Below are positions 1,143 to 10,545 of a stretch of 37,505 nucleotides of DNA, piece by piece (positions within the stretch are counted from its first letter, which is position 1; the number at the start of each line of letters is the position of its first letter). The stretch is taken from positions 1-37,505 of the IMG/VR virus record IMGVR_UViG_3300013767_000208; one strand, 5' to 3'. The notes under the pieces are model-generated. The model searched no databases. It was not told where the DNA came from and worked only from the letters and a program-made list of their open reading frames with translations. Made by a program: the position numbers and the translations under genes. Source of the DNA: a virus (Duplodnaviria > Caudoviricetes).

Positions 1143-2339
1143 ATGCTGACAGACACGAAGCTCAAGAACCTCAAGGCAGCGGACAAGCTCTACAAGGTGG
1201 TGGACCGGGACGGCATGTACGTGGCCGTGTCGACCACCGGTGTCGTGAGCTTCCGCCTGGACTACCGGCTGAACGGGCGCCGCGAGACGCTGACGATCGG
1301 CAAGTACGGCCCGGCCGGCATCGGCCTGGCCGAAGCGCGGGAGAAGTGTCTGGCCGCCAAGAAGGCCATCGCCGAAGGCCTATCCCCGGCCCGTGAAAAG
1401 CAGCGCACCCGGGTGCAGGTACGCGCCGCCAAGACGTTCGGAGAGTGGGCCGCCCGCTGGCTCAAGGACTACCAGATGGCGGACAGTACGAAGGCGATGC
1501 GGGAGAGCATCCTGGAGCGCGACATCCTGCCCCAGTGGGGCAACCGGCAGATGGAGGAGATCACGCCCGAGGATTTGCGCGAGCGCTGCGACAAGATCGT
1601 GGCGCGCGGCGCGCCGGCCACGGCGGTGCACGTGCGGGAGGTGTTGAACCAGATCTACCGCTATGCTCTCAGCAAGGGGCTGCGCACCACCAACCCGGCA
1701 GCCGAGGTGCGACCGTCGACCATCGCCACCTTCGCCCCGAAGGACCGCGTGCTGGCGCCGGAGGAGATTGGCGTATTCCTCAAGCAGTTGGAGCACGTCG
1801 GCACGCTGCCCACGATCAAGCTGGGGCTGCGCCTGCTCCTGCTGACCATGCTGCGCAAGAGCGAATTGCTGGAGGCAACGTGGGAGGAGGTGGATTTCCG
1901 GACCGCTGTCTGGACGATCCCGGCGGAGCGGATGAAGGCGCGCCGGCCGCATCAGATCTACCTGTCCACCCAGGCGCTGGATATCCTGGTGGCGCTGAAG
2001 ACCTGCGCCGGCGCGTCGCAGTACCTGCTGTCGAACCGCTACGACAGCGACAAGCCGATGTCGAAGGCCACGCTTAACCGCAGCATCAGCGTGACCGTCG
2101 ATCTGGCCCGATCAAAGGGGCTGGCGCTGGACCACTTCGGCCCGCACGACATGCGCCGCACTGCCTCGACGCTGCTGCACGAGGCCGGGTTCAATTCCGA
2201 CTGGATCGAGAAATGCCTTGCCCACGAGCAGAAGGGCGTGCGCGCGGTCTACAACAAGGCCGAGTACGCCGAGCAGCGCCGCGACATGCTGCAGCAGTGG
2301 GCCGACATGATCGACGACTACGTGGCCGCGACCGTCTAA
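1143..2339 (+). CDS. int: P4-type tyrosine integrase with N-terminal arm-binding domain
   Basis: Likely start MLTDTKLKNLK at ATG 1143. Arm domain DRDGMYVAV...LTIGKY. Catalytic motifs LRKSE, HDMRRT, LAH and VYNKAEY are intact. Confidence 0.95.
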   Translation: MLTDTKLKNLKAADKLYKVVDRDGMYVAVSTTGVVSFRLDYRLNGRRETLTIGKYGPAGIGLAEAREKCLAAKKAIAEGLSPAREKQRTRVQVRAAKTFGEWAARWLKDYQMADSTKAMRESILERDILPQWGNRQMEEITPEDLRERCDKIVARGAPATAVHVREVLNQIYRYALSKGLRTTNPAAEVRPSTIATFAPKDRVLAPEEIGVFLKQLEHVGTLPTIKLGLRLLLLTMLRKSELLEATWEEVDFRTAVWTIPAERMKARRPHQIYLSTQALDILVALKTCAGASQYLLSNRYDSDKPMSKATLNRSISVTVDLARSKGLALDHFGPHDMRRTASTLLHEAGFNSDWIEKCLAHEQKGVRAVYNKAEYAEQRRDMLQQWADMIDDYVAATV

Positions 2340-4285
2340 GCCTTGCGCTGGTAGGTGTTGGGGCCGCGCGCCCGTGTGCTGCGGCCGTTGTAGGCGGTCT
2401 TCAGCTCGTTCCAGTCGAAGCCCTTCACCTTGGCGCCGTCCTCGCCGCGGTCGCCCTCGATGAGCACCACCGGCAGGTTGGACACCTGCGCGAAGTTCCG
2501 CGCCCGCGCCGCCAGGGATGACTTGGAGGGGTCGAAGCCCTCATAGTCACGCCGGCCGCACAGCTTCCACAGGAACTCGATCAGCGTGGACTTGCCGGCG
2601 CCGGGCTCGCCCACCACCTCCAGGAAGGGGAAGCTCTTCTGCTTGATGCCCTCGCCCTCGCGGATCTGCTCCGCGAACAGGCTGCCCAGCCAGAAGGCCA
2701 GCGCCACGATGGCCTTGGCGCCGAAGGCCTCCCACAGCAAGGCCAGCCAGTCTTGGCGGAAGGCCTTCAGGTCCATGTTCAGCGACAGGCCGGCCGAGCC
2801 GCCGATGGTCTTGATGGACAGGCGGCCGATGTCGAAGAAGTCCTCGTCGTTCAGCGTCTGCAGCTTGCCGTCCTTGACTGCCACCTCCGCGTAGACGTAG
2901 CACCCGTGCTCCTTGGCGTAGCCCACGAAGTCCACCGTCTGCACGCTCTTGATGCGGTGCATCTGCTCCTTGAGGTAGGCATCGAGCTGGCCGTTGGAGC
3001 CGGTGTAGAAGGCGCCCGGCGCCACGGCCAGCAGCCGCTTCTTGAACTCGCCGGCGGAGGCGATCTGCGCGCTGGTGAAGGTGTTCTTGACCGGCTCCGA
3101 GTCATGCGGCAAGGCCACGCGGAAGTAGTACCAAGCCTCGTCGGTGGCGGCGTTCGCCTGGTAGTAGAGTGCCGTGGGCAGGCAGGTGGCGATATTGCCT
3201 ACCACGCCGGCCTTCAGCATGGCCTCGTCGCGGATGGCTTCCTCGCTCATGTCATCGCGGTGCGCGCCGCGCACGGCGTCCATCTCGCGGTTCAGCGCCT
3301 CCAGGTCTACCTTGAACCAGTACAGCTTGCTGTCGAAGTCGAAGGGGAACTGGCTCATGCCGCTGCGGCGATAGATCAGCCGCGCCTTCTCGGCGGCGCT
3401 GGGCGCGGCCATCAGGTCGCCGAGGTAGCGGTACTCGACCAGGTCGGGCTCGGTCAGCTTGCCGAGCTGGTGCAGGTCGTTCCAGTCGCGCTTTTTCGGG
3501 CCGGCCTGCTTCGGCACGGCCGCCGAGGCCTCCCAGCCTTCCTCGCGGCTGCGCTTGAGCCACTGCTTGGCGTAGCGCGTGCCGGCGCGGTCCGCGTCCA
3601 GCGCCCACACTAGCTTGGGGCGCGGGCGGCTGCCGGCGGCGCACTGCTCGGCCAGCCCGGCCAGCGCCGCGGCTGGGTAGTTGACGCAGGACATGGCCGC
3701 CACCGCCGCCACGCCGTGGTGCCAAAGCGCGATGGCGTCGAAGATGCCCTCCACGATCCACAGCTCGGCGGCGGTGGTGTTCAGCGTTGGCGGCTGCCAC
3801 CACATGCCGCTGTAGCTGCCGTGGAAGGTCGCCTTACGGTCGCCGAAGCGGTGCGGCTGGTCGATGATCCGTTCCCAGTAGACGCCGGCCGCCAGCGCGA
3901 AGCGCACCGTGGCGCTGCCAATCTTCAGCTCGTGGCTGTAGTAGCTCTCCTGGCTGTACCAGGTGCGCACCTTGTCCAGGTCAAAGCCGCGGGCGTCGCG
4001 CAGATAGGCATCGGCGGCGGCCGTCGGGCTCTCCTGCGTGGCGGGGTAGCGGTCGCTCCAGCTCTCGAAGAGATCCGGGTACAGCTCTTTGATGTGCCGC
4101 TCGGCGCCGCAGTGGTTCAGCCGGTTGCAGCGCACTACCCACGGCGCATTGCCAAAGGCCCACAGCGTCCTCTTGCCGCACGCCGGGCACTTGCCGTCTT
4201 CCAGCTTCTCGCCGCCGCGCTTGGGCTTGAAGGCGTAGTCGCGCAGCAGGCGGCTGGTGACTTCGCTGTGGAGGGATGGGTTCAT
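2336..4285 (-). CDS. Zn-finger/Toprim primase - P-loop helicase replication protein (P4 alpha-like), probably C-terminally truncated
   Basis: CPACGK...CNRLNHC zinc finger; Toprim IVEGIFDAIAL and ALDAD; Walker A GEPGAGKST; Walker B VLIEGD. The ORF ends shortly after Walker B, and its stop overlaps the int stop. Confidence 0.88.
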   Translation of the reverse strand: MNPSLHSEVTSRLLRDYAFKPKRGGEKLEDGKCPACGKRTLWAFGNAPWVVRCNRLNHCGAERHIKELYPDLFESWSDRYPATQESPTAAADAYLRDARGFDLDKVRTWYSQESYYSHELKIGSATVRFALAAGVYWERIIDQPHRFGDRKATFHGSYSGMWWQPPTLNTTAAELWIVEGIFDAIALWHHGVAAVAAMSCVNYPAAALAGLAEQCAAGSRPRPKLVWALDADRAGTRYAKQWLKRSREEGWEASAAVPKQAGPKKRDWNDLHQLGKLTEPDLVEYRYLGDLMAAPSAAEKARLIYRRSGMSQFPFDFDSKLYWFKVDLEALNREMDAVRGAHRDDMSEEAIRDEAMLKAGVVGNIATCLPTALYYQANAATDEAWYYFRVALPHDSEPVKNTFTSAQIASAGEFKKRLLAVAPGAFYTGSNGQLDAYLKEQMHRIKSVQTVDFVGYAKEHGCYVYAEVAVKDGKLQTLNDEDFFDIGRLSIKTIGGSAGLSLNMDLKAFRQDWLALLWEAFGAKAIVALAFWLGSLFAEQIREGEGIKQKSFPFLEVVGEPGAGKSTLIEFLWKLCGRRDYEGFDPSKSSLAARARNFAQVSNLPVVLIEGDRGEDGAKVKGFDWNELKTAYNGRSTRARGPNTYQRKA

Positions 4286-4303: not shown

Positions 4304-4858
4304 TCAGGCCACACCATCCAGGCGCTGCTGCTGGAGGCCGGGCGTCAAGGTTTCCAGCTCCGCCACCGGCATGCCGAGCAGACGCGACACATGGCGCAGG
4401 TTGGCGTACAGCTCCACTGCCACGCCGCGCGAGCGCAGCGCTGCCAGCTCCTTCACCAGCGTGCCGCGGTAGCGCAGGGCGGCCAGATGCTGCGGCACGG
4501 TCAGCGTGCCCACGCGGCGCGCCGGCTGCCGGCCCTCCAGCACATCAAGCACCCAGCGGCGGAAGGCCTTGGCGCGCTCCGTACGGGCCAGCATGCCCAG
4601 CAGGTAGCAGCCGCGCGGGCTGAAGATGCGCACCGGCTGCCGGCCACCGGCGGTGTCCAACTCGATGATCTGAGTCATCTCGTCGGTGAACTCGTCGGCG
4701 TTGGCGTCGTAGAGCTTGTGAAGGGAGACACGCCCCTTCTCATAGCCCAAGGCGTCCCCGATCTGGGGACCCCTTAGCCACGGCACGTTGTGCATGTCGA
4801 CCACATCGAACTCGATGTTCTCGAAGGCGAGGACGGTGGATTCGGCCAGGTATTGCAT
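4304..4858 (-). CDS. BRO-N domain DNA-binding protein / antirepressor-like
   Basis: WLRGPQIGDALGY...LY..NADEF...RIFSPRGCYLLGMLARTERAKAFRRWVLDVLE is a BRO-N pattern. Start taken at ATG 4858. Confidence 0.85.
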   Translation of the reverse strand: MQYLAESTVLAFENIEFDVVDMHNVPWLRGPQIGDALGYEKGRVSLHKLYDANADEFTDEMTQIIELDTAGGRQPVRIFSPRGCYLLGMLARTERAKAFRRWVLDVLEGRQPARRVGTLTVPQHLAALRYRGTLVKELAALRSRGVAVELYANLRHVSRLLGMPVAELETLTPGLQQQRLDGVA

Positions 4859-4974
4859 TGCGAAGCTCCAGAGGTCAGGCCGCACTGGCGGCGGATTTCG
4901 GGCAAAAAGGGGCCCCTCGCGCCGAAGGGTGCGAAAACAGACACGAAGGGGAAGGGGGTTAGCTGGCTACGCCG

Positions 4975-5223
4975 CTACCCGGGCAGCAGATCCATCTGCC
5001 GCTCGTCGGCCCGGCCCGGGCGCGGCCTGCTCGCGGGCAGGTAGGCCTTCGGGTTCGGCCGCATGCTGGGGGCGATGGTGTTGATGATGGTCAGCACCAT
5101 CTTGCCGGTGTAGGCGCACTCCACGTTGGGGCACTGCGCGTACAGCTCGCGCGACAGCAGCCCGACCGGGCGGCTGGTGCGGATATGCAGCCGCGTTTCG
5201 CAATGGGGGCAAGTCATCTTCAT
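4975..5223 (-). CDS. ogr: Ogr/Delta-like zinc-finger late transcription activator
   Basis: MKMTCPHC...IRTSR...RELYAQCPNVEC gives the C2-C2 Ogr signature; 82 aa from ATG 5223. Confidence 0.9.
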   Translation of the reverse strand: MKMTCPHCETRLHIRTSRPVGLLSRELYAQCPNVECAYTGKMVLTIINTIAPSMRPNPKAYLPASRPRPGRADERQMDLLPG

Positions 5224-5504
5224 GGGTGCGTCCTCCCGCATTCGCCCAGGCCCTGGCGGGCGCATTCGCAAAACATGCCCACCTCGCCCAGCGTGGCCAC
5301 GGCCTCCAGGTATTTGCTGGTCACCAGCACATAGCCCACCGACCGCACCAGGACGTCGATCTTCTCGATGGTGACGCCCTGGTCGCCGTTGAGGAAACGG
5401 CTCAGCGCCGAGTTGTCCCAGCCGACAGCCTTCTGCACATCCTGGCGGGCCGGCCCAGAAAGGGCGCGGCGCAGCGCGTGCTCGATCAGTTGAGGGGGTC
5501 GCAT
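5220..5504 (-). CDS. Small HTH transcriptional regulator (CII-like)
   Basis: HTH-like QDVQKAVGWDNSALSRFL; lies in the early operon with its stop overlapping the ogr start. Confidence 0.65.
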   Translation of the reverse strand: MRPPQLIEHALRRALSGPARQDVQKAVGWDNSALSRFLNGDQGVTIEKIDVLVRSVGYVLVTSKYLEAVATLGEVGMFCECARQGLGECGRTHP

Positions 5505-5507
5505 CGC

Positions 5508-5744
5508 TCAATCCTCCGCAATCGAAGTGGTGTGACGTTGCACAAGCGCATGGGTACGCTGAAGGCCGTCCGCAGCCATCGCCCGCACGATTAGCAGGCG
5601 GGCCAGGTTGGAAAGGGAGCGACCTTCCTCCATGGCGCGGGCCTTGAAGGCCGCCAGTTCATCGGGCATCAAGCACGTCACGATGCGCCGGTCCGAATCG
5701 ACGCCGCGCGGCGCGCGAGCCGCCGGGGCTTTGGCGTTGGGCAT
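5508..5744 (-). CDS. Ribbon-helix-helix DNA-binding protein (Cro/Cox position of the switch)
   Basis: 78 aa from ATG 5744. RIVTCLMPDELAAFKARAMEEGRSLSNLARLLIVRAM fits the RHH pattern. Divergent from the repressor. Confidence 0.75.
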   Translation of the reverse strand: MPNAKAPAARAPRGVDSDRRIVTCLMPDELAAFKARAMEEGRSLSNLARLLIVRAMAADGLQRTHALVQRHTTSIAED

Positions 5745-5780
5745 GGCAGATATACTCTGTGAGTTAGCGTGGCACAACCC

Positions 5781-5809
5781 ATTATCTTTACGAACGTAAA
5801 GATAGTCAA
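5781..5809 (-). promoter_or_regulatory. Early lytic promoter with overlapping palindromic operator
   Basis: Minus strand reads TTGACT-17 nt-GATAAT (5809-5781). The perfect inverted repeat TATCTTTACG-aa-CGTAAAGATA at 5783-5804 covers the spacer. Confidence 0.8.
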
Positions 5810-5818
5810 GAGAACTTA

Positions 5819-6241
5819 ATGAACGTTGAGAGTGCAATCTTCGGCGAGCGCCTGGAGGAGGAGCGCGCGCGCCTGAACCTTTCGAAGGCTGCGATGGCGC
5901 AAGCTGGCGATGTGTCGGCGGGCGCCTACAGCAACTATCTGCGTGGCGCACGCGTGCCGGACCTCTCTGCATTGGCATCGTGGGCAGGCGCCGGCGTCGA
6001 CGTGCTGTATGTCGTGTCGGGGCGACGACTGCCGGATTTGCTGACGCCAGAAGAGGAAGTTGTGATCGGCGGCTACCGCAAGCTCGATGCGCGCGGCCGA
6101 GCCGGCGTGCTCGCGTTGATCGGCGGCATGCAGGAGCCGTCTGCCGCAGACGTGCGCGTGAAGGGCGACGTGGGGCAGTATGTCGCGGGCGATGTGACGG
6201 CGCCATTCACCATCGACATGGGTAAGAAAAGCCGGAAGTAA
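5819..6241 (+). CDS. Prophage repressor (XRE/CI-like HTH, no S24 peptidase domain) with a C-terminal low-complexity beta-type motif
   Basis: FGERLEEERARLNLSKAAMA...YSNYLRGARVPDLSAL...GVDVLYVVSG is an XRE HTH; C-tail is DVRVKGDVGQYVAGDVTAPFTIDMG. Confidence 0.88.
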   Translation: MNVESAIFGERLEEERARLNLSKAAMAQAGDVSAGAYSNYLRGARVPDLSALASWAGAGVDVLYVVSGRRLPDLLTPEEEVVIGGYRKLDARGRAGVLALIGGMQEPSAADVRVKGDVGQYVAGDVTAPFTIDMGKKSRK

Positions 6242-6261
6242 TCTGCACAAGTGACACAGCG

Positions 6262-6294
6262 AAATGGCCTGCAGCACGCAGGCCATTTTTGTTT
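6262..6294 (+). terminator. Rho-independent terminator after the repressor
   Basis: AAATGGCCTGC-agcac-GCAGGCCATTT then TTGTTT. Confidence 0.75.
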
Positions 6295-6472
6295 CGGCCA
6301 CCCACCTAAGCGCCGCGAAGATCTGACTTCAAAACCTTTCAACCGCCTTGGGAATCGTCTGGAACCTTCTGCCTGCTGCACGGGCTAGGTTGGACTTGCC
6401 CCGCAGCCCTATGTGGCGTCGGGCGTTCGTCAATCCAGGTGCCAGCATGGCACGCAACTAGGCAGGTCCAAA

Positions 6473-6955
6473 ATGAAGAAGTTGTTGATGTGGGTCGTCA
6501 TCGGTTTAGTGGGTCTGATTGTGCTTGTGGCAATCTTCGGCGGTGAAGAGAAGAGCAAGGCGGCCAGCCGGTCTGCGGATAGCACCGAGAGCACATCGGA
6601 GGGGAAGGCCAAGCCGAAGGAAGAGTCGGAACCGCCGATGCAGGTAACGGCGGATGAACTGCTCAATGCCTACAAGGAAAACGAGGTTGCGGCCAATCAG
6701 AAGTACAAGGGCAAGCGCCTGATGGTCAAGGCTCGGATCGACAGCATCGCGGCCGGCATAGGCGATGCACCCTTCCTGGTGCTGAAGGCCGGCGGGCAGT
6801 ACGAGTTCCTGCTGCCGCAAGCTCACCTAGCGAGTGGCGAGGAAGCGGCAGCGGCATCGCTCAAGAAGGGGCAGCAAATCACGCTGCTTTGCGTCGGCCG
6901 GAGCGAAGTCGCCGGTGCGCCGATGCTGGGTGACTGCCGCATCCAATCCTCCTGA
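6473..6955 (+). CDS. Membrane-anchored OB-fold protein (tRNA_anti-like), accessory gene
   Basis: N-terminal TM/signal MKKLLMWVVIGLVGLIVLVAIFG; VTADELLNAYKENEVAANQKYKGKRLMVKARI and LKKGQQITLLCVG...LGDC fit this family. Confidence 0.75.
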   Translation: MKKLLMWVVIGLVGLIVLVAIFGGEEKSKAASRSADSTESTSEGKAKPKEESEPPMQVTADELLNAYKENEVAANQKYKGKRLMVKARIDSIAAGIGDAPFLVLKAGGQYEFLLPQAHLASGEEAAAASLKKGQQITLLCVGRSEVAGAPMLGDCRIQSS

Positions 6956-7032
6956 TCCAACCACGCGTACCAGCACTACTGGGCTGCGCCGTTCGCGCGC
7001 AGCCCTTCCATTGTCCGCAGAGTTCAAAGCAT

Positions 7033-7704
7033 ATGAAGGCCAATGATGTAGCCGTAGACGGCGACGTGGGACAGCTTGTCGCCGGCAATGTTGTGCACGA
7101 AGGCGCGACCGCCGCCAGCCATCTCCACAACGTCATCACCATCCAGGGCGCCGCGAAGCCGGCGCCGGTTCCCACCATCACCGAACTGCAGCGCAAGCGC
7201 ATTGCCGTCAAGGTCAAAGAAGTGATGGGCGTGGCCGGCATCAAGCAGCAGCTGGAAGTGTATTCCGTGGTGATGACGGACTTCGGCGTAGAGAAGATCA
7301 TGGATCTCCCACGGGACCAGTTCAAGGGGGTAATGGCGATGCTCGACAACTGGATCGCGGAGGAAGCGCAGGAACAACCGCCCCAGCGGACTCCTGAGCA
7401 GCGCGAGAGTGGGGACGAATCCAGTGCTTCGCCCACAGCGCTGCCGGGGCGTGTGGGCCTGATTCGATGGGGGCTTGCCTTCTTGGCGGCCGTATGTGTG
7501 CTGACCTTCTGCGCGTACGTCATCATCCAGAATCTCGCGCCCGCTGCGCGGAACGGGAGCGAGTGCCAGCATGACGGCAAGGCCTACTCGCTGGGGAGCG
7601 TGATTCGTATGCCCGACAACGGCATCTACGAATGCGCGGCCGGCGAGCCGGGCGGGCAGGCGGCCTGGCGGACATCCTCCCTGGCTGCCGGCAAACGCCG
7701 GTAA
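7033..7704 (+). CDS. Single-pass membrane protein: N-terminal motif shared with the repressor, ORF6C-like helical domain, TM helix, small Cys-containing (DUF1496-like) C-terminal domain
   Basis: N-term DVAVDGDVGQLVAGNV; ITELQRKRIAVKV...FGVEKIMDLPRDQFKGVMAMLDNW; TM LIRWGLAFLAAVCVLTFCAYVII; CQHDGKAYSLGSVIRMPDNGIYEC. Confidence 0.7.
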   Translation: MKANDVAVDGDVGQLVAGNVVHEGATAASHLHNVITIQGAAKPAPVPTITELQRKRIAVKVKEVMGVAGIKQQLEVYSVVMTDFGVEKIMDLPRDQFKGVMAMLDNWIAEEAQEQPPQRTPEQRESGDESSASPTALPGRVGLIRWGLAFLAAVCVLTFCAYVIIQNLAPAARNGSECQHDGKAYSLGSVIRMPDNGIYECAAGEPGGQAAWRTSSLAAGKRR

Positions 7705-7921
7705 CTTGCACGGCGTGCCTTTGCGATGGGAGGCGTTTCGCTATCGCCCACAACCGCGGGCCAGGCTCCCGTTGGCTGGTTGTCATTTCGACGGTAAACC
7801 CTACTCTCTGGGGAGTGTCGCAGTGACACCGCTTCAGGGTATCTTCGAAAGTTTTAATACAGCGTCCCCAACAACGGAATAGTCCTCCGCACCACCAGTA
7901 CAATGAACAAGGAAGAATCGG

Positions 7922-9058
7922 ATGGCAAGTGTCAAGGAAAGCGTTCTAACCGCAGCACAGGTTGACTCGATGTCGATTGATCGACTGATCTTTCATGTGA
8001 TCAATGTCGATGCTGAAGGGGACGATCGGGTCATTGAGTTGGACGAGATTCAGTTGGACGATGACCAAAGAACATTCTTTCTGGATCGGATCAAAAGCGT
8101 CGCTAAGGGTATTCAGTACGATTTTCTAGAGCGCGGAGTCGGGACGAAGCAGCTCTGCGAGCAACTCGTCGCAAAACATGACAGTTTCGTCGAGGCGTCG
8201 GTCGATCTCACGACCAACTTTGCGAATCACCACAGGAAGAGCATGGCAAGTGGGGTGTTTGTCGTTGCGACGGTGACCATTCAATACGCTGAGAAGGCGC
8301 CGCTCACTTTGGTCTTTCTCGCGAAGTTCGATCATCGCAGCGTCTACCAGATCATCGTACAGGCGAAACTCGATGGTACGGGTCAACATGCTGCGATGAC
8401 GAAAGTGGCTAACACCCTCGTGGAAGACAAGAACGCAATTCAAAAGAGCGCTCTTGTTGATATAAGTGACAAGTTCGCGTGGGGCGTCCTTGCAGACGAG
8501 CGCAAGCTTCGCCCCAATGGAGAAGTCACCGACTACTTCAAGAATTTCCTCGCAGTGCAGCTGCGCGAGGTCGCGAGTGTACTTACGCGCAGGGCAGTGA
8601 GCAAAGTGAGGGAGTGGGCGAGGGGAATACCCGAGGCCGATATGCTTGAGACTGAGTTGCGAGGGAACTACGGTTACAGGGCGGTCGCGTACATGAATGC
8701 GACCGCTCAAGGGTTCTTCGATCTTGACACGTTCATCGGTGCGATCGTCCATGATGCCGACGACCCGCGTGAGGCCGACGACGCTGAGCTTGCTAGGGCC
8801 AATGCGGGCAGGAAGCGGACTCTGGAGGACTCACTGCGAATGTGGCTTATCGATGCTGGCCTTGAAAATCAAAAGTTTCAGCCGAAGCCAAAGTCGCTTG
8901 CCAAAGCCGATAGGAAACAACAATGGAAGACTGCAGAAGGAGTCAGTCTAGAATTCCAGGGTGAGCCTAAGGACTTTGGCATCACGGTGGGTGATCGCAA
9001 GGACGGTCTTCCAGGCCAACTGATCCAGATTTTGACGCAAAACATCTCGACAACCTAA
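7922..9058 (+). CDS. Nucleoid-associated protein-like (YejK/NdpA, NA37-type) accessory protein
   Basis: SIDRLIFHVI...FVEASVDLTTNF...SGVFVV...LVFLAKFDH...IQKSALV...TDYFKNFLAV resembles the NA37 family pattern. Visibly less GC-rich than the phage core. Confidence 0.7.
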   Translation: MASVKESVLTAAQVDSMSIDRLIFHVINVDAEGDDRVIELDEIQLDDDQRTFFLDRIKSVAKGIQYDFLERGVGTKQLCEQLVAKHDSFVEASVDLTTNFANHHRKSMASGVFVVATVTIQYAEKAPLTLVFLAKFDHRSVYQIIVQAKLDGTGQHAAMTKVANTLVEDKNAIQKSALVDISDKFAWGVLADERKLRPNGEVTDYFKNFLAVQLREVASVLTRRAVSKVREWARGIPEADMLETELRGNYGYRAVAYMNATAQGFFDLDTFIGAIVHDADDPREADDAELARANAGRKRTLEDSLRMWLIDAGLENQKFQPKPKSLAKADRKQQWKTAEGVSLEFQGEPKDFGITVGDRKDGLPGQLIQILTQNISTT

Positions 9059-9060
9059 GA

Positions 9061-10545
9061 ATGAAAGCTCACTTGGAGGTGATCAACTCGCTGACCCAGC
9101 TTGAGGCCTTGGCCACAAGCTGGGAGGAGACTGCCTCCAGCTTAAGCGTGGAGGGGCGGTTAAGCGCTGAGTCTCTGCAAGCCCTGACTGACGTTGTCGC
9201 CTCGTTCGAGGCGGCATCGTTGGCGCTCCCCAATTTGCGACTCGACGAGGAGAGCTACGATCGGGACGGACTTATCGCGATCGCTTCAGATGACCCAATG
9301 GACTGGCCAGGAGAATGGAAAATTGGCCTAGACAAGGGGCGGATGCTTGATGAAGTCCCAGCCGGAGATGAGGCGCTTGTCTTTCTTAGGCGCGAAGCGT
9401 TCGTGACGTGGAGCGAACGCTTGTCACCCTTCGAGCTTGGGGGGATCAAACGGGGTGTAAATACGCATGTGATCGTCAGTGGCCTCAAAAGTGCGTTTGG
9501 CGGGCCGCGACTCTCGGTTTTGCCATTGCGCGCAGATCTTTCAGTTGAGCCCGAAAATGGTTTCAAGTTTCCGGAGGAGCCGGATGTTCTCAAGCTCATC
9601 CATGTAATCAGTGATCGCAGCTTGTTGATGGATCCTGGGGCTGTGGCATTGACGTGGGGCGACAGGGAGCAAGACGACGCCAGCGCACTGCGTCGTTTGT
9701 CTGCAATGGTGGTCGCTCTCTGTATGGTTCAGGACGTTTATCTTCGTGACAACGCAGTACGCGTTGTGCTTCGCGGAACCAGGCGAGTCGAGTTGCCACT
9801 TGTCGCGGGTCAGAATGAATCGGTGTCAGTTTCGCAGCTCGATGAAATTTATGCGGCCGTGGAATGGATATTTTCCGAGCGCGAGGAGACACGCCACAAA
9901 CTTCTGACGGACCGGTTGTCGATCGACGTGAGAGACGACACGTCGCTTATGTCGGCTCTGACCAAGTTCCTAACGGAGGCCCTCAAGCAAGCAAAGGAGC
10001 GATACGGCTTCGTAATCCTGGATCGTAAGGATGCGTATCACAAGGAGCTACGGGATCTCATGAAGGATGTCCGTGCCCAAGCCGATTTGTATGCGGCAAA
10101 GGTAAGGGATCTGGTCGCGGCGCTGTCACGTGACACGCTCGCCGTGCTGTTCATGATTGGTGTGAGTTTGGTCGGTCGGACAAACACAAACGCAATTCAA
10201 GGCCTGGTATCCACCACCGAAGTTCAAATTTTCTTCAAGGTCCTTGCGATCTATTTCGTACTGTCGATCGTCCTGCAAGGTGTCTCTCACTGGCGCGATC
10301 TCTCCTTGGCTAGACGGGAGGGAAGTGAATGGCACAAGCTGACAAGAGAGTACGTACCGCAGAGCACGTTCGAAGAGCATTTCGAGGCTCCCCGTCGCAG
10401 GCGCCATAACTTCTTCAAGATTGCCCTGGTTATTTGCGCGGCTGTGTATTTCGCGCTTGCGTGGTTGAGCTGGAATATCGCATCCGTCTTCAGCATCTTC
10501 TCGGGCGTTGCCGTAAAAGCCGGAACGATGACCGTAGGCAGTTAG
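9061..10545 (+). CDS. Hypothetical protein with coiled-coil and about 3 C-terminal transmembrane helices; operon partner of the NA37-like gene
   Basis: Starts 2 bp after the previous stop. Hydrophobic segments TLAVLFMIGVSLVG, IFFKVLAIYFVLSIVLQGV and FFKIALVICAAVYFALAWLSW. Confidence 0.8.
   Translation: MKAHLEVINSLTQLEALATSWEETASSLSVEGRLSAESLQALTDVVASFEAASLALPNLRLDEESYDRDGLIAIASDDPMDWPGEWKIGLDKGRMLDEVPAGDEALVFLRREAFVTWSERLSPFELGGIKRGVNTHVIVSGLKSAFGGPRLSVLPLRADLSVEPENGFKFPEEPDVLKLIHVISDRSLLMDPGAVALTWGDREQDDASALRRLSAMVVALCMVQDVYLRDNAVRVVLRGTRRVELPLVAGQNESVSVSQLDEIYAAVEWIFSEREETRHKLLTDRLSIDVRDDTSLMSALTKFLTEALKQAKERYGFVILDRKDAYHKELRDLMKDVRAQADLYAAKVRDLVAALSRDTLAVLFMIGVSLVGRTNTNAIQGLVSTTEVQIFFKVLAIYFVLSIVLQGVSHWRDLSLARREGSEWHKLTREYVPQSTFEEHFEAPRRRRHNFFKIALVICAAVYFALAWLSWNIASVFSIFSGVAVKAGTMTVGS

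Follow-up and report, generated by a model that had tools for sequence, protein, structure and literature searches.

The 37,505-nucleotide (nt) stretch of viral DNA analysed here (the window; Caudoviricetes, IMG/VR record IMGVR_UViG_3300013767_000208) is a 96% complete provirus record. In it, an XRE/HTH_3 repressor and a membrane-anchored partner protein encoded downstream share a short sequence motif, or tag, which forms the C-terminal tail of the first protein and the N-terminal head of the second. Comparison of sequences from relatives indicates that P2-like and Mu-like phages share this tag match as a conserved module whose parts co-evolve, and that tail and head very probably bind one another directly through homotypic contacts. 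The features of the module, all on the + strand, are as follows.

5819..6241, +: XRE/HTH_3 repressor, 140 amino acids (aa) (translation, family scans, structure model)
6149..6223, +: repressor C-terminal motif, core 6149-6196 and then FTIDMG (translation, alignment of relatives)
7033..7704, +: partner protein, 223 aa, PHROG 6521, comprising the motif, a three-helix domain, one transmembrane (TM) helix and a small exported beta domain
7045..7149, +: partner N-terminal motif, core 7045-7092, second strand NVITIQG (translation, alignment)
7168..7374, +: partner three-helix domain, residues about 46-114 (model; ORF6C/antirepressor-C/Flk-like in relatives)
7453..7533, +: partner hydrophobic helix (H141-167), predicted single TM segment (model and sequence)
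7564..7674, +: partner two-cysteine beta domain, DUF1496-like, FnI/vWC-like fold, predicted periplasmic (evidence all weak)

Repressor residues 111-126 (6149-6196) read DVRVKGDVGQYVAGDV and are followed by FTIDMG, and partner residues 5-20 (7045-7092) read DVAVDGDVGQLVAGNV and are followed by NVITIQG. The translations bear out the original prediction that the two 16-mers are identical at 12 of 16 residues; different codons are used at 6 of these 12, and the tag DNA is 79% identical over 39 nt. The tag score was reached by 1 of 50,000 shuffles. When the tails and heads of the 158 open reading frames (ORFs) in the window, mostly shadow frames, were compared, the repressor/partner pair ranked 5th of 24,806; the window alone is therefore suggestive, and it is the relatives that settle the match. 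A profile of the partner family matched the repressor only within 6146-6202, from which we conclude that the remainders of the two proteins are unrelated, as had been claimed. A six-frame tag scan of the window returned the two known tags at 37.5 and 32.4 bits, with the next match at 16.2 bits, and revealed no third tagged protein. The two genes had also been described as neighbours. This holds for most relatives, 103 of 119 unique pairs being separated by ≤200 nt, but not for the window, where 791 nt and a Sie-like OB-fold gene intervene.

The structure model of the repressor comprises a helix-turn-helix (HTH), two more helices (77-104) and an unstructured C-terminal tail; in the monomer models, both tags are of low confidence and devoid of secondary structure. 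No S24 peptidase domain was found in the repressor by family scans or in its model, as the original prediction had it, and the protein is thus not of the LexA/cI-like, RecA-cleavable type. According to a 2011 survey, no P2- or 186-type immunity repressor could be identified in phages RSA1, phiE202 and phi52237 (PMC3448106), and our literature search found nothing on how peptidase-less repressors such as these are switched off. The closest named relatives of the repressor come from Cupriavidus and Ralstonia. Different repressor cores occur with similar tails and partners (L003-L006 and L009 compared with L020-L040), suggesting that the DNA-binding part has been exchanged while the tag stayed with the partner.

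Relatives of the module and co-variation of its tags

Viral, metagenome and genome contigs yielded 194 loci, some contigs being fetched twice. Together with the window, these make 195 loci, with a repressor in 194 and a partner within 2.5 kb in 171, giving 120 unique pairs; one of these (L062), with a mis-called start, was dropped to leave 119. The 102 distinct loci fetched via the partner have an upstream repressor on the same strand in all cases except one truncated contig. Loci fetched via the repressor alone have the canonical partner in 69 of 92 cases, the remaining 23 consisting of 16 repressors with a distinct tail (type C, below), two with soluble matched partners missed by the profile (L080, L193), two contig ends and three for which no partner was found. 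The partner is present in 32 of 399 sampled Burkholderiaceae-level genomes, and at all 33 partner places in the 29 genomes followed up, a same-strand repressor lies ≤1.3 kb upstream. Three genomes (G177, G218 and G249) were excluded from this follow-up, which concerns co-occurrence only, and G218 counts in the 32/399 tally alone. The co-occurrence of repressor and partner that the original prediction proposed as a check is thus borne out. Among named phages, the module is found in RSA1 (ORF35/ORF33), KS5 (gp11/gp12), AP3, phiX216, phiE202 and the transposable phiE255 (gp46/gp47), with both tag sequences read for RSA1 and phiE255. In RSA1 (L196:2202-3422), a transposase is inserted between repressor and partner.

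Co-variation was analysed on the locus pairs. Clustering of the 119 pairs by partner body at 50% identity gave 33 lineages, in which the mean tail/head score is 43.7 for cognate and 31.5 for non-cognate combinations; the corresponding values are 40.5 and 31.4 with clustering at 70%, and 45.9 and 30.5 at 40%. The observed cognate mean was reached by 0 of 500 permutations in any of 200 draws, so that a second proposed check, on co-variation, gave a positive answer as well. The cognate head ranks in the top 3 for 49% of cases. There is an excess of identity in 10 of 14 columns, which the shifted register of the F-x-G-Q lineages may inflate, and mutual information is maximal at offset 0 (0.137, compared with ≤0.043 at other offsets).

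The tail and head types are mirrored locally, as in GDVGQNIYGN/GDVGQNVFGN, MGDVAQIISGG/VGDVAQLITGG, GDFHGQLVEG/GDFNGQLANG, GDIAGRDIVN/GEVAGRDIVN and GEVSQVVHG/GDVSQLVSG. This mirroring bears on the idea that the tags make no direct contact and instead bind the same third factor, such as a host protease, adaptor or chaperone, co-varying with the host. The terminal position of the tags suits degrons, and the data do not separate host lineage from phage lineage. However, Cupriavidus and Ralstonia repressors have several tag types, each of them matched in the local partner, a pattern not expected from a shared host factor, and we consider this explanation quite improbable.

A further alternative is that the match is a historical relic, produced as repeated duplication or gene conversion copied the repressor 3' end onto adjacent 5' ends, and devoid of function. 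In the window, the same codon is used in both genes at 6 of 10 identical residues, against an expectation of 3.4, and a decayed duplicate of the 3' part of the partner gene is present at 7757-7822. Across the 33 lineages, however, the same synonymous codon is used in 81 of 213.5 cognate cases (0.38), which equals the codon-usage expectation of 0.38 (non-cognate, 0.37); ongoing DNA copying is therefore rejected, and gene conversion with it. Moreover, four of the additional tagged genes described below resemble the main partner at 11-12 residues with just 3-4 codons in common. The relic explanation is largely refuted and has, in our judgement, very little chance of being correct; the earlier contention that selection acts on the peptide, rather than a recent DNA duplication having generated it, is upheld.

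The tag is rich in G, V, N, F, Q and I and poor in P, L, K and R (composition ratios: G 2.9, V 2.5, N 2.3, Q 1.5, I 1.5, K 0.64, L 0.25, P 0.16). It is also carried by other proteins. Five extra membrane proteins, with bodies unlike the main partner, bear the local tag at L104 (two), L153, L155 and L169; four of them have the same residue as the main partner head at 11-12 of 14 positions, and the fifth at 6 of 14. In phiE255 gp47, the tag is present as two pseudo-repeats.

The repressors at the 16 type-C loci have a tail that contains SQIIVGGSNNVQVG. A soluble helical-domain protein of 184-191 aa is encoded in all 6 of the type-C records searched; its start, read and aligned at five of the loci, contains KQSISAGNGNVQIG. 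Where measured, its gene lies about 2.3-3.1 kb from the repressor on the opposite strand; it is absent from 5 of 5 canonical records searched and from the window. In the sampled genomes, 9 of 10 copies of the gene have an XRE repressor at a distance of 0.4-4.5 kb, and a type-C tail is detected in 5 of these repressors. The type-C core, N-V-Q-(V/I)-G, has four of the five positions of the G-phi-Q-phi-G signature, and its V-Q-(V/I)-G element is, we presume, the RHIM tetrad. The notion that type-C repressors had lost their partner was overturned by the whole-record searches in which the soluble protein was found.

Partner architecture and proposed mechanism

In the partner model, the three-helix domain is confidently predicted. 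Among the 33 lineage representatives, 23 combine the helical domain, a TM segment and the exported domain; seven have no helical-profile match (five of these being short proteins that lack the domain), one has no exported domain, one falls under the TM threshold and one is a fragment. The original prediction of a membrane sensor is therefore too narrow, since soluble partners (L080, type C) and partners without the helical domain exist. The exported domain is weakly DUF1496-like in 18 of 83 relatives, and a Protein Data Bank sequence search with it gave weak mucin matches only. The helical domain is weakly ORF6C-like in 5 of 83 relatives; that of P0224 matches PHROG antirepressor families 2127 and 245. 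In repressors P0210 and P0267, the domain is inserted between core and tail, and this fusion argues for an action of the domain on, or together with, the repressor.

Structure comparison of the helical domain with VIA-align placed phage recombination proteins at four of the top five positions: the Sak C-terminal region (Z 8.6, root-mean-square deviation 1.6, 62 residues aligned), NinB (7.6) and the Red-beta C-terminal domain (6.7, and 6.4 with an SSB peptide). A Z of 8.6 is within the range that helical bundles attain by common arrangement; none of these values is decisive for such folds, and a role for the domain in sensing SSB or another protein is a lead only. Foldseek returned nothing at E ≤ 0.001, and the ESM Atlas held no usable feature match for the partner head. 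The partners at L104:2992-3573 and L150:3001-3588 match the N-terminal half of Flk (PRK10715), a flagellar regulator of enterobacteria, with E values of up to 1.5e-15 and, like it, have a C-terminal membrane anchor. Flk and the phage partner proteins may share an origin; the best score in the relatives is 57 bits against a family cut-off of 353 bits over about 339 positions, and the window partner has no Flk match. In 7 of 7 close relatives, and across many lineages, a CxxC immediately precedes the TM helix; the corresponding region of the window partner, about residues 113-140 (7370-7450), has none. This CxxC is a possible metal or redox site, lost in the window.

We propose that the matched beta-type tags of repressor tail and partner head would stack in register. 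Clustering of the partner, through its exported domain, the CxxC or the Sak/Red-beta-like helical domain, would act as the trigger; the clustered partner would then recruit the repressor through the tag into a cross-beta-like assembly and lift repression independently of RecA-driven cleavage, the outcome being induction rather than tighter repression. We regard the case for this mechanism as evenly balanced. Co-variation towards identity in the same register fits in-register stacking and mimicry of a self-association strand alike. The short length of the tag, its BASS-like composition, its disorder in the monomers, its reuse in several proteins, the pseudo-repeats and the RHIM-like class tilt the balance towards cross-beta-like assembly, and the missing peptidase together with the antirepressor-like domain tilts it towards induction as the output.

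The first alternative, a strong rival to the amyloid reading, is a finite complex of the kind formed by SinI and SinR. The tail would be a strand for repressor self-association, and the partner's copy would swap into the oligomer and tether or poison it, forming a defined complex and not an amyloid. Co-variation towards identity is equally expected here, and SinI and SinR share a heterodimer surface (PMC3163267). The helical domain of the partner resembles antirepressor C-termini, and the tail is retained at L061, where no partner was found. Set against this, the tag is G/N/Q/V-rich, spans only about 14-25 residues and is unstructured in the monomer models, and its occurrence on several unrelated proteins per locus and as pseudo-repeats suits an open-ended polymer better. 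Overall, we judge the finite complex somewhat unlikely.

The reverse direction of signalling must also be weighed. Here the repressor would be the input: a change in it, or an incoming related repressor, would assemble the membrane partners, so that superinfection is excluded or aborted. In keeping with this would be the extra tagged proteins, which are membrane proteins of small size, the nature of the region, a hotspot for morons that includes a Sie-like gene, and the membrane-targeting cell death in which known amyloid pairs, the prophage-borne Bab/Agp included, end (10.1101/2024.11.07.622273). In the known pairs, it is the N-terminal tag that marks the receptor, however; soluble partners and repressor fusions exist, and the main partner has a single TM segment with an exported domain. 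These points make the reverse direction improbable in our view.

Returning to the cross-beta mechanism, a number of observations weigh against it. Mutual information rises to 0.118 along one antiparallel diagonal, and three lineages have poor cognate ranks (L008 23rd, L029 28th and L060 21st of 33). Tree-based independent contrasts (62 rows, six characters) gave the same direction or ties, almost never the opposite, and are underpowered (median p 0.125-0.5, with p < 0.05 unreachable for any character). No partner was found for three repressors, in the 94-96% complete records of L061 and L086 and within 3 kb at L192. The type-C evidence derives from a single lineage, in which the tail/head match is modest (score reached by 6-953 of 20,000 shuffles), and at L057 the canonical head outscores the type-C head for the type-C tail. 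No RHIM, HET-s or other amyloid-motif family of Pfam was matched by any of 51 repressors or by 12 tails and heads scanned in isolation, and family scans detected no NTPase family or NB-ARC/NACHT NLR in the 223-aa partner, such as marks a BASS receptor. Finally, an irreversible amyloid on a repressor that needs to stay active would risk spontaneous induction. Complex prediction with two repressors and two partner fragments (1-115), using paired 51-row alignments, scored 0.01 with unfolded controls, and the result counts neither for nor against the proposal.

In its widest form, which we advance tentatively and hold to be possible rather than probable, the proposal is of a widespread amyloid-signalling lysis-lysogeny switch. 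In temperate P2-like and Mu-like phages, several interchangeable membrane or soluble sensors would serve one repressor by way of a prion-like tag specific to the lineage; induction would be all-or-none, brought about by nucleated cross-beta assembly of the repressor, and the tag type would be a second specificity code beside the operator. If so, related phages might cross-induce or ignore one another according to tag type, and this would be the first functional amyloid to control a phage transcription repressor, extending functional amyloid signalling beyond immune cell death to gene regulation and a phage life-cycle decision. If the complex is instead finite, the repressor partners of many Burkholderiaceae prophages would still represent a hitherto undescribed family, modular in build and often linked to the membrane. 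The module is a candidate off-switch for repressors that lack a peptidase.

Regulatory sites and surrounding genes

Further features around the module are listed below.

5781..5809, -: sigma70-like promoter-like site directed toward an RHH/Arc-like early gene (matches the consensus at 10 of 12 positions; shuffles would give 0.6 such sites)
5783..5804, no strand: perfect inverted repeat of 10 bp with a 2-nt spacer, overlapping the leftward promoter-like site (read directly from the sequence)
6262..6288, +: perfect 11-bp hairpin followed by T-rich bases (repeat scan; absent from the terminator-scan list)
6473..6955, +: membrane-anchored OB-fold gene, tRNA_anti-like, PHROG 8545 'Sie-like' (family scans)
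7757..7822, +: decayed second copy of the DUF1496-like coding stretch (repeat scan; profile E 1.5e-4)

The promoter at 5781-5809 put forward in the original prediction is retained as a promoter-like site; its orientation is corrected, as it faces left, toward the RHH/Arc-like gene, and the repressor gene diverges from it. The inverted repeat at 5783-5804 is likely to be the repressor operator, and the hairpin at 6262-6288 is likely to be a terminator 3' of the repressor gene. No RNA holder is listed for 5700-7900. The Sie-like OB-fold gene is a variable insert outside the core module, and similar proteins are also present at type-C loci. The decayed copy of the exported domain lies directly downstream of the partner gene and points to this gene having been replaced or duplicated.

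A two-gene moron (7922-10545) separates the partner from the tail genes and encodes an NA37/YejK-like protein (Pfam E 3.8e-6) and a 494-aa protein whose C-terminus is hydrophobic. The moron resembles a cassette for prophage defence, and a similar-looking pair lies 3' of the partner at L157. At L061, where the repressor has a canonical tail and the 94% complete record holds no partner, two genes, putatively a DUF262/HEPN-type defence pair, fill the partner's slot (4591-6370). The leftward genes of the window encode a Toprim primase, Bro-N, Ogr/Delta and RHH proteins, and an integrase is also present. The Toprim primase/helicase ORF (2336-4285) stops at 649 aa, soon after the Walker A motif and ~40 nt from the integrase stop, and looks truncated. 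Judging from the translations, the integrase presumably lies at the 3' end of a guaA-like gene, and the genes to the right of the module are presumably P2-type tail genes.

Comparison with known systems

BASS pairs are defined by a motif that one protein carries at its C-terminus and another at its N-terminus, the two being encoded within 5 kb of each other and usually collinear; the motif is about 25 aa long, rich in Q, N, G, V and I, and poor in K, P and L (10.1101/2020.01.06.895854). The module described here agrees in layout and in composition. As in fungal NWD2/HET-S, bacterial BASS1-10 and Bab/Agp (BASS11) of an E. coli prophage, a short G/N/Q/V/I-rich motif forms the C-terminus of one gene product and recurs as the N-terminus of a second, which is linked and mostly collinear, and the pair-specific sequence, the tagging of several domain types, the pseudo-repeats and the RHIM-like class are further points of likeness. 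The carriers are different. At the C-terminal side, an HTH_3 repressor replaces a Bell, HeLo, TIR or CHAT effector, and at the N-terminal side, a small single-pass or soluble helical protein takes the place of an NLR or TGP. The window core, V-G-Q-(Y/L)-V-A-G, departs from the G-phi-Q-phi-G signature of RHIM and BASS3. The likeness to amyloid signalling originally predicted thus stands for layout and composition and fails for the Pfam motif families and for NLR and Bell domains.

The terms 'repressor', 'HTH' and 'helix-turn-helix' are absent from the main text of the BASS and Bab/Agp preprints (10.1101/2020.01.06.895854; 10.1101/2024.11.07.622273), and the tag is not described in the available passages on KS5, P2 regulators, AP3, RSY1 and Flk or in the SinR and Qtip abstracts. 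A full-text literature search, which did not extend to subscription papers or to bioRxiv supplements and figures, found no description of the motif pair; the original prediction likewise named no described case of such a motif on a phage repressor.

In SinI-SinR of Bacillus subtilis, an XRE repressor is antagonised by way of a segment that it has in common with its antagonist, and the module resembles this pair in having such a shared segment. Unlike the helical segment of the SinI-SinR four-helix bundle, the shared segment here is a short, disordered, beta-type tag, with no helix in either tag of the monomer models where SinI would have a helical hairpin, and the second protein is larger and often membrane-bound. 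Qtip of phage VP882, which links a signal to induction by sequestering the phage repressor, offers a route comparable to that proposed here (10.1101/2019.12.16.877910). The target of Qtip, which is switched on by quorum sensing, is the DNA-binding domain at the N-terminus of an autoproteolytic cI, whereas here the repressor has no peptidase and the C-terminal tag is common to a linked gene. The partners at L104 and L150 are like Flk/Fluke (PRK10715; PMC13344023) in helical domain and C-terminal anchor and unlike it in scores far under the family cut-off, the Flk-profile match beginning after the tag, from residue 28 onward. We conclude that the module is built like the BASS and RHIM pairs and is not a member of that family.

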